This document shows, piece after piece, positions 1 through 3,925 of a DNA stretch of 3,925 bases. Position numbers and translations under genes: made by a program. The DNA is from a virus (Duplodnaviria; Heunggongvirae; Uroviricota; Caudoviricetes). Under the pieces are notes generated by a model. It did no database searches, had not been told where the DNA came from, and was given only the letters and a program-made list of their open reading frames with translations. The stretch lies in IMG/VR virus record IMGVR_UViG_2713896784_000030. One strand, given 5' to 3'. How positions within the stretch are numbered: position 1 is the first letter of the stretch; the number at the start of each line of letters is the position of its first letter.

Positions 1-162
1 ATTACGAGCCAGGGCTTCCGGATGGCTGTCGTCGTACAGTTCCGGGAACGTCATCCCCAGTTCGAAATAAGTCCGGGCTATTTCAGCTGCAGGAACTTTC
101 TCACCATCAGGATATGCCCAGGCATTCATCGCCATGCGGATGTGCTCATGTTTGATTTTCAT
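1..162 (-). CDS. ydaT: Partial CDS (first 54 codons; continues beyond window start): YdaT-like prophage protein
   Basis: Not in the ORF track because it runs off the window. Hand translation of the minus strand from ATG (plus 160-162) gives MKIKHEHIRMAMNAWAYPDGEKVPAAEIARTYFELGMTFPELYDDSHPEALARN, open to position 1. AAGAGG-like Shine-Dalgarno about 10 nt upstream. The start overlaps the last 17 nt of the upstream ydaS-like gene. Name from recalled similarity to Rac prophage YdaT and from synteny, not from a search. Confidence 0.55.
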   Translation of the reverse strand, partial: MKIKHEHIRMAMNAWAYPDGEKVPAAEIARTYFELGMTFPELYDDSHPEALARN

Positions 163-469
163 GAATCATTTGCCTCTTGATGCTTCGGGTATGATCGTTT
201 TCGTCATTTGGTTGCTTCATCGACATATTCTGCGAATAACATGACGAGCGTCGTAAGTATGTCCAATCAACATCAGGACGAAGTTCTTCACACAGGACAC
301 CACCTTTTGTTGCTCGTTCAATCGCAGGACATCTCTCAGCAGGCAACTGACGTACACCTTTGATCCATTGATTTACGCTTGGAGGAGATACACCTAAAAG
401 CCTAGCCATTGCTGATTGCCCACCGACAACAGCACAAGCTCGTTTGAATGAATAGTTATCTTTTTTCAT
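146..469 (-). CDS. ydaS: Cro/YdaS-family helix-turn-helix regulator (107 aa)
   Basis: The ORF-track entry 146..490 starts at GTG. I place the start at the internal ATG (plus 467-469) because GGAG lies 8 nt upstream on the coding strand. Product MKKDNYSFKRACAVVGGQSAMARLLGVSPPSVNQWIKGVRQLPAERCPAIERATKGG... has the HTH signature of YdaS/Cro-like regulators. Divergent from the repressor gene across an operator region. Stop is TGA at plus 146-148. Confidence 0.8.
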   Translation of the reverse strand: MKKDNYSFKRACAVVGGQSAMARLLGVSPPSVNQWIKGVRQLPAERCPAIERATKGGVLCEELRPDVDWTYLRRSSCYSQNMSMKQPNDENDHTRSIKRQMIHENQT

Positions 470-593: not shown

Positions 594-1070
594 ATGCTTA
601 GTGGTAAAGACTTAGGCCGAGCGATAGAGCAGGCCATTAACAAAAAAATTGCATCAGGAGCCGTCAAATCAAAGGCGGAAATCGCACGTCATTTCAAAGT
701 CCAACCACCATCAATCCATGACTGGATTAAGAAAGGTTCGATAAGTAAAGACAAACTTCCAGAACTATGGCGTTTCTTTTCTGATGTGGTTGGTCCAGAG
801 CATTGGGGGCTTAACGAATACCCCATACCAACCCCATCCACTTCAGATACAAAAAGTGAACTTTTAGACATAAACAGCCTTTATCAAGCCGCCTCTGATG
901 AAAAAAGAGCAATTGTGGCTTTCCTCTTATCTGGAAATGCTACGGAGCCTAGTTGGGTTGATCATGACGTTCGTGCCTACATTGCCGCAATGGAAATGAA
1001 GGTAGCTAACTATCTGAAAAATCAAGAATCAAAACGGAAAAGCCAGAACATCACCAAGACAGGAACTTAA
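594..1070 (+). CDS. racR: Prophage repressor, RacR-like (158 aa), occupying the cI position
   Basis: ATG at 594 with AGGAG at 578-582. N-terminal HTH-like segment (...AVKSKAEIARHFKVQPPSIHDWIKKG...). The gene lies between two outward-facing promoter/operator modules, as lambda cI lies between pL and pR. Length and sequence agree with my recollection of Rac RacR; not verified by search. Confidence 0.8.
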   Translation: MLSGKDLGRAIEQAINKKIASGAVKSKAEIARHFKVQPPSIHDWIKKGSISKDKLPELWRFFSDVVGPEHWGLNEYPIPTPSTSDTKSELLDINSLYQAASDEKRAIVAFLLSGNATEPSWVDHDVRAYIAAMEMKVANYLKNQESKRKSQNITKTGT

Positions 1071-1207: not shown

Positions 1208-1307
1208 TTTCCCATACCAACCCATCCCGTCCCACACAATACAGGGCAATACCTAGAGTTACCCGGCAGTGGTCAGGGATTAAGTAGCCAGCCCGAGGCG
1301 TAAGAAC

Positions 1308-1538
1308 ATGACGGCAGGGTTCAACTTTAACTATGCAGCAGGTTTTTGTTCCGCTACCCCGGCGTTAAGGGGATATGAGGTCAGCATGGATACTCTTGAT
1401 CTTGGCAACAACGAATCTCTGGTGTGCGGCGTGTTTCCCAACCAGGACGGCACGTTCACCGCGATGACGTATACCAAAAGCAAAACGTTTAAAACCGAAT
1501 CTGGCGCGCGTCGCTGGTTAGCAAGAAACTCTGACTAA
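1308..1538 (+). CDS. ydaF: Small prophage protein, YdaF/YdfA-like (DUF1391-type), 76 aa
   Basis: ATG at 1308 with GAGG about 9 nt upstream. The C-terminal segment ...MDTLDLGNNESLVCGVFPNQDGTFTAMTYTKSKTFKTESGARRWLARNSD matches my memory of the small Rac/Qin proteins YdaF/YdfA. In K-12 this region is annotated as two short genes (ydaG and ydaF); here it is one continuous ORF. Position next to racR agrees with Rac synteny. Not verified by search. Confidence 0.6.
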   Translation: MTAGFNFNYAAGFCSATPALRGYEVSMDTLDLGNNESLVCGVFPNQDGTFTAMTYTKSKTFKTESGARRWLARNSD

Positions 1539-1652
1539 TGAAATCTGGTAATTAAGGAATCCTCCACGGGGGGAGAGTGGTGCACACGCGCCGGACACAA
1601 GCAAGCATCCGGCATGCTCTTTAACAATCTGGATATCCATAACAGTAAAAAT

Positions 1653-2144
1653 CTACAGATTGCCGTTCAGTTTTCTGGCCAACTCTTCAATAGATGGAGG
1701 TGATACGTAATCCGGATTTTTATTCATAAGAAACTGATTTTCACAGTACAGGCACCTGCTTTTATGAAAAAATTCATATTCTCTAACCGGGAATGGCTGA
1801 AGTATCGATACTATCTTTTGTCCAAAACATTTTGGACAAAGATGCATGATTATGCTGCCGCCGTTCACGGTTACCTCCTTCGAGTACACAAAAGTTCCCG
1901 ACTCAAGTTGGCTAAGGATATAACCTTCCGTCTGAGCCTCAAAGTTTTCAAATTCTGCAATTTTAGCTTTGAGAGAAGCATTTATTTCTTGATAAGTGCC
2001 CACCAGCTCAACGAGAGACACGCATTCGCGCTGAATAGATGCAAGCTTTGAGTTCAGTTCACCAATAGCCGCATTTACTTCAGCTTGAGTTTTTGCCTCG
2101 TTCATTAGTTTTGCAATCTGGGCGGTTTCACGAATAGCCGTCAT
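1653..2144 (-). CDS. Hypothetical protein: N-terminal coiled-coil plus C-terminal CxxC-X24-CxxC zinc-ribbon, no recognisable family (about 163 aa)
   Basis: The ORF-track entry 1653..2321 is trimmed to the internal ATG (plus 2142-2144). An alternative GTG start at 2168 has AAGAG 8 nt upstream. The upstream 5' extension runs through repeat-rich, noncoding-looking DNA. Product MTAIRETAQIAKLMNEAKTQAEVNAAIGELNSKLASIQRECVSLVELVGTYQEINASLKAKIAEFENF... has heptad-like hydrophobic spacing. It continues ...HLCPKCFGQKIVSILQPFPVREYEFFHKSRCLYCENQF... with two CxxC pairs. No hydrophobic stretch long enough for a transmembrane helix. Convergent with the ydaF-like gene and opposed to the pL-like operon. Confidence 0.6.
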   Translation of the reverse strand: MTAIRETAQIAKLMNEAKTQAEVNAAIGELNSKLASIQRECVSLVELVGTYQEINASLKAKIAEFENFEAQTEGYILSQLESGTFVYSKEVTVNGGSIIMHLCPKCFGQKIVSILQPFPVREYEFFHKSRCLYCENQFLMNKNPDYVSPPSIEELARKLNGNL

Positions 2145-2182
2145 TGCTGCCGTTAATTCAGCGATCACATTCAATACTCTTA

Positions 2183-2228
2183 TTGTTGTTGGGGATATCC
2201 AGATTAACAAGATCCTTGTTGTTGGGGA
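2183..2228. repeat. Two exact 13-bp direct repeats, TTGTTGTTGGGGA, 33 bp apart
   Basis: Copies at 2183-2195 and 2216-2228, each followed by (A)TA. They lie 40-85 bp upstream of the start of the minus-strand hypothetical gene. Confidence 0.6.
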
Positions 2229-2354
2229 ATAACGGGGACCACCTCGCCTGACGTGGTAAAAAGCAGGCACACAACACGAAAGCACACGGCGAGGGACACC
2301 ATTAAATGGTGGCTTAAGCAATCACGCGAAGCGCAATCTGCCATTATGACCGAT

Positions 2355-2404
2355 NNNNNNNNNNNNNNNNNNNNNNNNNNNNNNNNNNNNNNNNNNNNNN
2401 NNNN
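2355..2404. other. Assembly gap (run of 50 N)
   Basis: Fifty consecutive N characters. The true length and content are unknown, so any ORF drawn across it (ORF-track 2253..2507) is not interpretable as one gene. Confidence 0.95.
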
Positions 2405-2405
2405 A

Positions 2406-2507
2406 TTCGAAGGTGAGCGCCATAATGCACTTGATGACGCCCGTTACCAGGCAAAATACGTTTCAGTTATCTGGCAAAAACTGATCCCGAGTCAGGCTGA
2501 TTTTTAA
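2406..2507 (+). CDS. 3' end of a DnaQ-like (DEDDh) 3'-5' exonuclease gene; 5' part lies in or beyond the gap
   Basis: The post-gap reading frame gives FEGERHNALDDARYQAKYVSVIWQKLIPSQADF then TAA (2505-2507). HNALDDARY fits the Exo III motif (H-x-A-x-x-D-A) that lies near the C-terminus of DEDDh exonucleases. Only this terminal segment is visible. Confidence 0.45.
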   Translation, partial: FEGERHNALDDARYQAKYVSVIWQKLIPSQADF

Positions 2508-2518
2508 TGTTCAACCGT

Positions 2519-2550
2519 CGCCAGTTGTCGTTGATATTCTGCAACTGGCG
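2519..2550. repeat. Perfect 9-bp inverted repeat (CGCCAGTTG / CAACTGGCG) with 14-nt spacer, immediately upstream of the xis ribosome-binding site
   Basis: Plus 2519-2527 is the exact reverse complement of 2542-2550. It lies between the exonuclease stop (2507) and the GGAG (2557-2560) of xis. There is no downstream T-tract, so it is not a classic intrinsic terminator. Confidence 0.5.
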
Positions 2551-2568
2551 CGTTCCGGAGTGATAGCC

Positions 2569-2838
2569 ATGAGCGAACAGTACCTGATAACGCTCGACGA
2601 GTGGAAACCAAAACGGTTCAGTCTCCCAATAACAAACACTACCCTGGTGAAATACGGAAAACTAGGATACATCGTTCCAAGACCACAAAAAATTCGTGGG
2701 CGTTGGCTGATAGATCGCCGAGCAGTATTTGTTGGGCCTGGTGAAACGGGAATTGCGCCGGAAATTCATACTGGCGATGATGATGCACTGAAGGAGATTT
2801 TAACTCATGTCACCGAGGCCACGAAAAAACAGCACTGA
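2569..2838 (+). CDS. xis: Excisionase (lambda Xis-like), 89 aa
   Basis: ATG at 2569 with GGAG 8 nt upstream; the ORF-track start at 2560 is a GTG that overlaps the SD. N-terminus MSEQYLITLDEWKPKRFSLP... resembles lambda Xis MYLTLQEWNARQRRPRSL.... The 3' end overlaps the start of int by 32 nt, as in lambdoid phages. Confidence 0.7.
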   Translation: MSEQYLITLDEWKPKRFSLPITNTTLVKYGKLGYIVPRPQKIRGRWLIDRRAVFVGPGETGIAPEIHTGDDDALKEILTHVTEATKKQH

Positions 2839-3925
2839 CGTAGCCGGTCTTTACGAAAAGTTTGATCGCAGAACTGGCAGAGTTTACTACCAGTATAAAA
2901 ATCCTGTGACTGGAAAATTTCACGGACTCGGAACAGACAAAGGTAAGGCAGAAAAAATCGCTTCCACAGCCAATCAGCGAATAGCTGCAGCAGAAGCTGA
3001 ATATTTCATGCGCAAAATTGATGAAAGTCCGTCAGCAACAAAACGTCGGGGTATCAGATTAAAGGCATGGGTTGATCGATATCTGAAAATACAGGACACG
3101 CGACTGAAAAATGGAGATATTGCAGCTACAACTCACAAAGAAAAAACTCGAATGGCTGCATACCTGGTTTCCCGTCTGGGAAACCACCCATTGAAAGAAC
3201 TGGAAGTAAGAGACTTTGCATTAATACTGGATGAGTGGCTGGATAAAGACATGGTCAGTACAGCGAGAGTAAATCGTGGATTATGGGTTGATATTTATAA
3301 AGAAGCACAGCATGCAGGGGAAGTTCCTCCTGGATGGAATCCTCCGGAGGCTACCCGTAAACCGATCCCTAAAGTAACCAGAGCCAGGCTCACCATGGAA
3401 GACTGGCAAAAAATTTACAATGCAACGCCTGAAAAACACTTTATCCGTAACGCAATGCTTCTTGCGATTGTTACTGGTCAGCGCCGTGATGACATTTGCC
3501 ACATGCGTTTTTCAGATGTGTGGAACGAACACTTGCATATCACCCAGGGAAAAACCGGAATGCGTCTGGCGTTACCGCTTACACTACGCTGTGATGCCAT
3601 TGGGATAACGTTAAAAGAAGTTATTGATGGGTGCCGAGACAGAATATTAAGTCCATATCTAATCCATAGTCGGCACCAGAAACAACCGAAGCCGATGAGT
3701 AAAGACAACCTGAGCGACTACTTTGCCAAAGCACGGGATCTGGCTGGGGTAATTCCACCAGCAGGAAAAACTCCGCCAACATTTCATGAACAACGCTCTC
3801 TATCAGAACGGCTGTACCGTGCACAGGGTATCGATACAAAAACATTACTAGGACATAAAGTCCAGGCAACCACCGATCGCTATAACGATACTCGAGGTCA
3901 GGAATGGGTTAAGTTGGTTATTTGA
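2807..3925 (+). CDS. int: Lambda-family tyrosine integrase (site-specific recombinase), 372 aa
   Basis: ATG at 2807 with AAGGAG at 2791-2796. Extended similarity to lambda Int as recalled: TGQRRDD vs lambda TGQRVGD, PPTFHEQRSLSERLY vs PPTFHELRSLSARLY, LLGHKVQATTDRYNDTRGQEW vs LLGHKSDTMASQYRDDRGREW. This gives the catalytic Arg, His-x-x-Arg and Tyr in the expected order. TGA stop is the last three bases of the window. Confidence 0.95.
   Translation: MSPRPRKNSTDVAGLYEKFDRRTGRVYYQYKNPVTGKFHGLGTDKGKAEKIASTANQRIAAAEAEYFMRKIDESPSATKRRGIRLKAWVDRYLKIQDTRLKNGDIAATTHKEKTRMAAYLVSRLGNHPLKELEVRDFALILDEWLDKDMVSTARVNRGLWVDIYKEAQHAGEVPPGWNPPEATRKPIPKVTRARLTMEDWQKIYNATPEKHFIRNAMLLAIVTGQRRDDICHMRFSDVWNEHLHITQGKTGMRLALPLTLRCDAIGITLKEVIDGCRDRILSPYLIHSRHQKQPKPMSKDNLSDYFAKARDLAGVIPPAGKTPPTFHEQRSLSERLYRAQGIDTKTLLGHKVQATTDRYNDTRGQEWVKLVI

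Follow-up and report, generated by a model that had tools for sequence, protein, structure and literature searches.

In the Rac prophage of Escherichia coli K-12, the interval between ydaF and xisR contains sieB, kilS, kilR, ydaE, racC, recE, recT, ralR/ralA, and rcbA. The C-terminal domain of RecE, the protein encoded by the sixth of these genes, is a 5′–3′ exonuclease. Exonuclease VIII (Exo VIII)-type recombination genes were also described by Asadulghani et al. (2009) in seven prophages of E. coli O157:H7 Sakai, including Sp6, with an intact system found only in Sp10 (PMC2669165). Table 1 of the same paper scores Sp6 as ‘D’ (defective) for recombination and ‘+’ for both Int and Xis, and the spontaneous excision of Sp6 and its transfer to K-12 were demonstrated experimentally (PMC2669165). 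Sp6 is the prophage located at potC (PMC8190617). A further described system that bears on this locus is Rip1 (ring interacting pore 1), which PMC13434031, citing Patel et al. 2026, presents as a single-protein defense that generates a pore upon assembly around the small-terminase or portal ring of a phage.

We analyzed a stretch of 3,925 nucleotides from IMG/VR record IMGVR_UViG_2713896784_000030, read 5′ to 3′ and referred to in its entirety as the window, following up a prediction made earlier from its sequence. The window is the integrase-proximal (left) arm of the lambdoid prophage Sp6 of E. coli O157:H7, at potC. Apart from an assembly gap, it differs from the closed O157:H7 genome TR01 (locus L001) by one base, at position 520. 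Comparison of annotations places its Sakai counterpart at ECs_1501–1507, beside potC, a series that starts with an integrase (ECs_1501) and an excisionase (ECs_1502), continues with an ‘exodeoxyribonuclease VIII’ of 114 amino acids (ECs_1503), a hypothetical protein (ECs_1504), and ECs_1505, and ends with a repressor (ECs_1506) and ydaS (ECs_1507). The genes that surround the gap are as follows.

146–469, minus strand: YdaS/Cro-like helix-turn-helix gene with a YdaS_toxin Pfam match (ECs_1507)
594–1070, plus strand: RacR-type repressor, 92% identical to K-12 RacR
1386–1538, plus strand: DUF1391 (YdaF/YdfA-like) gene, WP_001414141.1 (PF07151, E = 2e-30)
1653–2168, minus strand: gene of 171 amino acids with a GTG start, rip1-like; WP_000559928.1, ECs_1504, annotated as ‘hypothetical’
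2569–2838, plus strand: excisionase (xis), WP_000003742.1, ECs_1502
2807–3925, plus strand: lambda-type integrase (int) with an Arm-binding domain, ECs_1501; the prophage adjoins potC

By annotation, a gene of the YdaT family adjoins this series in TR01. An Rfam scan of the window at the gathering threshold gave no match. The start of the DUF1391 gene is annotated differently in different sources: the Sakai product, ECs_1505, has 76 amino acids (231 nt, 1308–1538) versus 50 amino acids in the PGAP annotation (1386–1538), and the Pfam match is confined to the last 48 residues.

The gap falls between the minus-strand gene and xis, in a region that comprises the following features.

2208–2292, plus strand: open frame extension upstream of the junction, not derived from an exonuclease gene; holds GTG 2253
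2293–2294, no strand: probable deletion junction, with a 2-nt GG microhomology
2293–2507, plus strand: exonuclease-derived 3′ end, the terminal 398 nt of the gene (215 as written, with the gap), corresponding to parent residues 682–813
2289–2507: pseudogene annotated by PGAP as ‘3′-5′ exonuclease; incomplete; missing N-terminus’
From ATG 2346: ECs_1503, annotated in Sakai as a coding sequence of 114 amino acids
2355–2404, no strand: run of 50 N, the sole N-run of the window, read as a scaffolding placeholder
2421–2438, plus strand: Exo III motif H-x4-D (HNALDD) of the DEDDh fold

A megablast search of positions 1540–2900 against 5426 complete E. coli genomes identified 267 genomes that carry both flanks of the gap at 100% identity, with a match length of 1544 bases in the genomes versus 1361 in the query. 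In TR01, the flanks lie at L001 3756–3815 and from 4049 onward, separated by 233 nt (L001 3816–4048). This filling, GAAATCCCGTTAGATG...ACGGCTATTCC, encodes residues 50–127 of a 133-codon remnant, including the Exo II motif. The identical 233 nt are present in Sakai and in three independently assembled IMG/VR contigs, all of which are closed across this position. A 40-mer spanning the junction is present in these three IMG/VR contigs and is absent from species-representative genomes; when sought among phage records, the junction was carried by none. The run of 50 N is best read as a scaffolding placeholder for these 233 nt, and the gap is an assembly artifact that public closed genomes have already filled. 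Since 233 and 50 both leave a remainder of 2 when divided by 3, one frame runs across the gap. We also considered a deliberate mask; a mask would be expected to keep the length of what it covers, yet the N-run measures 50 rather than 233, and a placeholder is the likelier explanation, if not a proven one. Sakai ECs_1503 shares with the window its locus, its junction, its 233-nt filling, and its neighbors ECs_1501–1507 by potC, and differs solely by the 50-N placeholder in the window assembly.

Closed genomes also provide the gene order between ydaF and xis, which the original prediction had regarded as unresolved: the DUF1391 (ydaF-like) gene is followed by the 171-residue minus-strand gene, the exonuclease remnant, xis, and int. 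The distance of about 1 kb proposed between the ydaF-like gene and xis agrees with the window as written (~1.03 kb from the stop at 1538 to the ATG at 2569) and grows to ~1.21 kb once the gap is closed. The same prediction had the gap hide at least 300–400 bp, which would allow a complete DEDDh domain of ~170 residues, or even a full gene, in the real genome. This reading draws on arithmetic alone, from the number of residues that a full domain needs, and on the arbitrary length of N-runs in scaffolds. We assign it almost no probability, and for the sequenced O157:H7 lineage it is already refuted: all closed versions place exactly 233 nt between these flanks, Exo I would fall upstream of 2293, where the DNA is unrelated and intergenic, and Pfam coverage begins only at profile position 46.

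Short-read assemblies commonly break into separate contigs at dispersed repeats whose copies are near-identical. The 233-nt stretch is present in 4064 of the 5426 E. coli genomes, reaching 7 copies in a single genome and 4–5 copies in the O157:H7 strains listed. In TR01, the 3′ end of the exonuclease gene matches at seven places and the left flank at one. That the hidden bases belong to a sequence with several copies per O157 genome is the likely cause of a short-read assembly break at 2355–2404. An exonuclease 3′ end present in 4–7 copies per O157 genome is also the setting in which scaffolders misjoin, and the flanks could in principle be contigs from different prophages brought together in error. 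The probability of such a misjoin is negligible, because the rip1-like gene, junction, remnant, xis, int, and potC follow one another in the same order in the closed O157:H7 genomes TR01 and Sakai, the part from the rip1-like gene to the integrase is common to the 267 complete genomes with flanks 100% identical, and the window and TR01 disagree at only the single base noted above.

Downstream of the gap, frame 3 encodes FEGERHNALDDARYQAKYVSVIWQKLIPSQADF and terminates at the stop codon 2505–2507. The Exo III motif and the end of a 3′–5′ exonuclease gene at 2507 had been recognized from this portion of the sequence, and both HNALDD and the stop are indeed present. Upstream, the frame is open only from 2208, as predicted, preceded by a stop at 2205–2207; the possible starts GTG 2253 and ATG 2346 are both found, and the 20 nt before each contain no Shine-Dalgarno sequence of the GGAG/AGGA type, in line with the earlier view that none was convincing. 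When the gap is filled, the open reading frame matches Pfam PF16473 (Rv2179c-like 3′–5′ exoribonuclease domain, a DEDDh fold) far above chance level, with E = 1e-46 over positions 46–177 of 177, which corresponds to 132 of the 177 profile positions. Exo II (N-x2-x-F-D; WGNGANFD) lies inside the hidden 233 nt and aligns with the GMSFD motif of 8KEL (‘Exodeoxyribonuclease’, 227 amino acids), the closest solved relative. Exo I (D-x-E), which provides two metal-binding carboxylates, is absent, as the remnant begins at parent residue 682 and the parent DLET motif is located at residue 636. Like the PF16473 DEDDh exonucleases, the remnant has both Exo II and Exo III, together with the C-terminal two-thirds of the domain; without Exo I and the initial ~45 profile positions, however, it is an incomplete member of the family. 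The original prediction had named a remnant as one of its two options, and this option holds, the closed domain being still without Exo I. An NCBIfam search with the remnant yielded no match, and a scan of the closed locus for promoter and terminator consensus sequences found 0 sites, no more than in shuffled sequences.

Lacking a native start codon, a complete domain, and a Shine-Dalgarno sequence, the remnant reads as a pseudogene. It should have no 3′–5′ exonuclease activity: of the four acidic residues that bind metal only two remain, the fold has lost its first part, and neither the RecE-like body of the parent nor a ribosome-binding site is present. The truncated exonuclease is an already documented defect of a well-studied O157:H7 prophage (PGAP; PMC2669165). 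The open frame ahead of it (2208–2292) is former intergenic DNA, from roughly the first 125 nt of the region that separates the minus-strand gene from dicB in relatives without the deletion. In two such relatives, L003 and L004, the counterpart runs on into unannotated intergenic DNA, and the segment is open in the exonuclease frame by chance.

The intact parent gene was found in three related prophages, at the following positions.

L002 (strain AR_0151), 6957–9398
L003, 10646–13117
L004, 10626–13097

The prophage of AR_0151 occupies the same potC site and encodes an ‘exonuclease’ of 813 amino acids (WP_000102136.1) directly upstream of an excisionase whose protein accession is identical to that in O157; more generally, the excisionase protein is identical in the relatives with an intact exonuclease. 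The last 132 codons of the AR_0151 gene are identical at the nucleotide level to the remnant, with 0 differences over 398 nt. The 813-residue parent consists of an Exonuc_VIII region (PF06630, residues 57–189) and a C-terminal DEDDh domain (PF16473, residues 632–803), whose Exo I and Exo II motifs align with the IDFET and GMSFD of 8KEL, and the breakpoint falls at residue 682. Compared with the intact exonucleases of 813–823 residues in lambdoid E. coli prophages and phages, annotated as ‘exonuclease’ or ‘exodeoxyribonuclease VIII’, the window is devoid of residues 1–681, that is, the PF06630 RecE-like body, the linker, and Exo I. Among PHROG families, the domain matches the C-terminal ends of profiles of 264, 530, and 823 residues.

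The parent gene occupies the position of recE, and its product is 59% identical to K-12 RecE over residues 58–615 (~560 N-terminal residues). Beyond this point the two proteins are unrelated: the BLASTP alignment stops at RecE residue 591, and the C-terminal nuclease region of RecE, from about residue 592, is replaced in the parent by an unrelated DEDDh domain. Against the RecE equivalog NF007259, the parent aligns with model positions 1–602 of 877 and scores 944 bits, below the cutoff of 1269; lacking model positions ~603–877, it falls outside this equivalog. From these comparisons, the intact parent is a domain-swapped relative of RecE, with a RecE-like N-terminus of ~600 residues joined to a C-terminal DEDDh domain. 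Roughly three in four complete E. coli genomes contain the exonuclease, and our literature search returned no functional study of the intact RecE-like/DEDDh protein.

Four independent searches placed the breakpoint at 2293/2294. In a three-way alignment, the left parent matches through G2294 and the right parent, the exonuclease gene, from G2293, and the two overlap in the GG dinucleotide. To the right of the breakpoint, window 2293–3925 is 99.8% identical to L002 and 99.7% identical to induced phages such as vB_EcoS-640R1, where an intact exonuclease gene likewise lies directly upstream of the same xis and int. To the left, window 1220–2294 is 99% identical to L003. Past the junction, L003 continues with ~550 nt of intergenic DNA, dicB, a DUF1482 gene, the 823-residue exonuclease, xis, and int, and L004 presents this whole undeleted layout at potC. 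Relative to L003, the window is missing the interval 9756–12719, which measures 2964 nt (~2.96 kb). The small RNA gene dicF is classically found upstream of dicB in dicB operons. In the ~550-nt stretch that precedes dicB (L003 9630–10177 and L004 9629–10156), neither DicF nor any other Rfam family was detected at the gathering threshold; the scan of L003 and L004 as a whole returned sok only, outside the deleted interval.

An illegitimate deletion of ~2.96 kb very probably made the Sp6 remnant, with the N-run standing as a scaffolding placeholder for 233 nt of the resulting pseudogene. A single event of this kind would bring codon ~681 of the exonuclease gene next to the intergenic DNA that precedes the rip1-like gene. 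It would take out dicB, the DUF1482 gene, and the start codon, RecE-like body, and Exo I of the exonuclease, leaving its last 132 codons and stop as a pseudogene with Exo II and Exo III. Downstream, xis and int would be left intact; Sp6 excises and transfers, and therefore the integration module was not disabled by the deletion. The remnant is undecayed because the deletion is recent, the 267 junction-bearing genomes being near-identical in this region. Among the sequences searched, we found no genome with both sides at least 99% identical to the window and the interval intact, and the immediate ancestor is therefore reconstructed from two mosaic relatives.

This mosaicism invites a different origin, in which illegitimate recombination between two prophages, rather than a deletion within one, generated the junction. 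The best left relative, L003 (99%), occupies another attachment site and has an exonuclease of its own that is only 87% identical; the best right relative, L002 (99.8%), differs in its immunity region; and recombination among O157 prophages is known (PMC2669165). L004, however, carries all the parts in the right order at potC, so that an internal deletion suffices, and we regard an origin from two prophages as unlikely, although it deserves some weight. A dead, truncated gene results under either origin. With the internal deletion as the favored reading, one ~3-kb event at a 2-nt microhomology would explain precisely how the recombination and dicB genes of Sp6 were lost, with xis and int to one side and a putative defense gene to the other being spared.

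The comparison with Rac requires several corrections. The original prediction put the K-12 interval at ~8 kb; the distance from ydaF to xisR is ~5.7 kb, and sieB, kilS, and ralA are present in addition to the genes it had listed. It further proposed that the locus is strongly compacted or rearranged, or that sequence is missing from the assembly. The compaction is real, and the locus is compact because ~3 kb were deleted from an interval of ~4 kb; an 8-kb Rac recET block, on the other hand, was not lost. In the undeleted relatives (L002, L003, and L004), no recT, ralR, or ydaC/rcbA lies between the exonuclease gene and xis, and dicB, the DUF1482 gene, and an exonuclease of 813–823 residues stand directly ahead of xis. 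The likeness to Rac in the window is restricted to the immunity genes, RacR and YdaS, with a gene of the YdaT family adjoining in TR01. The integrase of the window is unrelated to IntR, the insertion is at potC and not at ttcA, and the order kilR-racC-recE-recT-ralR-rcbA does not occur in this type of prophage.

Could the fragment nonetheless be expressed as the 114-residue ECs_1503, from ATG 2346, with a residual or new role? It is an annotated coding sequence in Sakai, and phrog_8783 is a family of 114 residues that starts at the same methionine; gene callers therefore accept the fragment as an open reading frame. It is also encoded in the sense orientation ahead of xis and int, whose expression follows from the excision of Sp6, and its sequence is undecayed. 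Against these points, the fragment has no Shine-Dalgarno sequence, neither Exo I nor the N-terminal third of the fold is present, its intactness is explained by the recent deletion, and PGAP classifies it as a pseudogene. A role for ECs_1503 is accordingly improbable to a high degree. A narrower version, in which the undecayed ECs_1503 is translated and acts without catalysis, is more improbable still; if true, the fragment, in which Exo II and Exo III survive along with the C-terminal two-thirds of the DEDDh fold, could bind the ends of nucleic acids, or it could pair with and modulate full-length paralogues encoded by other prophages of the Exo VIII type that share its O157 host cell. A pseudogene left by the internal deletion remains the reading we adopt.

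The junction lies 126 nt upstream of the start of ECs_1504, and therefore the deletion spared this gene and the sequence just ahead of it. ECs_1504 gave no significant match in Pfam (only a sub-threshold coiled-coil), NCBIfam, or PADLOC (2023), and is still ‘hypothetical’ in the complete genomes inspected; every source that names the family labels it in this way. The gene occupies a slot like that of sieB, and we considered SieB as its identity, but BLASTP against K-12 SieB gave E = 39, and this candidate was rejected. ECs_1504 was identified solely by searching with its fold and by comparing a family profile with PDB sequences. Its family extends across Enterobacterales, with a long helix at the N-terminus and four cysteines that are invariant (CxxC...CxxC). 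The AlphaFold (AF2) model, with a pLDDT of 90.8, consists of helices (residues 3–79) and a β-rich domain (residues 84–150), in agreement with the Rip1 fold of an N-terminal helix followed by a ring-binding C-terminal domain. In Foldseek, this model matches 9oox_M with a probability of 1.0 and a TM-score of 0.70 normalized to the target; chain M of 9OOX is the Rip1 protein of phage HK446 bound to the T6 small terminase. The family profile aligns with the same chain at E = 7.4e-24 over positions 6–151, with both CxxC pairs in register. Searches with tblastn connect ECs_1504 to HK446 gp37 (7e-6), to the Mu-like Pseudomonas phages JBD30, DMS3, and D3112 (2e-11), and to HkaP of HK620 and HK630.

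Judged by sequence and modeled fold, ECs_1504 is a clear full-length homologue of the anti-phage protein Rip1. With Rip1 of HK446 and of the Mu-like Pseudomonas phages it shares homology in sequence and fold over its full length, an N-terminus formed by a long helix, and both CxxC pairs. Its genomic setting is also similar: the gp37 gene of HK446 lies next to N on the strand opposite to the early-left operon, ECs_1504 has the same place by the immunity region, and distant family members in Edwardsiella and Klebsiella likewise sit in an opposite-strand slot. The two proteins differ in that ECs_1504 is only ~27–28% identical to HK446 Rip1, and its roles in defense and pore formation are putative.

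The gap itself has little biological weight. Its value is cautionary, in that the length of an N-run is uninformative about the content it hides, and a motif visible past a gap may come from a pseudogene. ECs_1504, by comparison, is a testable candidate defense gene in a major pathogen and a more useful outcome of this analysis than the gap.

Two minor observations concern the wider Rip1 family. Many E. coli Rip1-like entries in the databases are ‘partial’ (109–141 amino acids) and located at contig ends; draft assemblies therefore often break in or near the gene, which fits a repeat-rich neighborhood. In an Edwardsiella prophage (L010), a gene with a GmrSD_N domain and a partner of 208 amino acids (8105–9785) lie within ~3 kb of the Rip1-family gene. 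This pair also adjoins an N-peptide gene, and a DnaB-like gene is found at the equivalent position in a sister prophage (L009), which makes the position look like a variable slot for defense genes.
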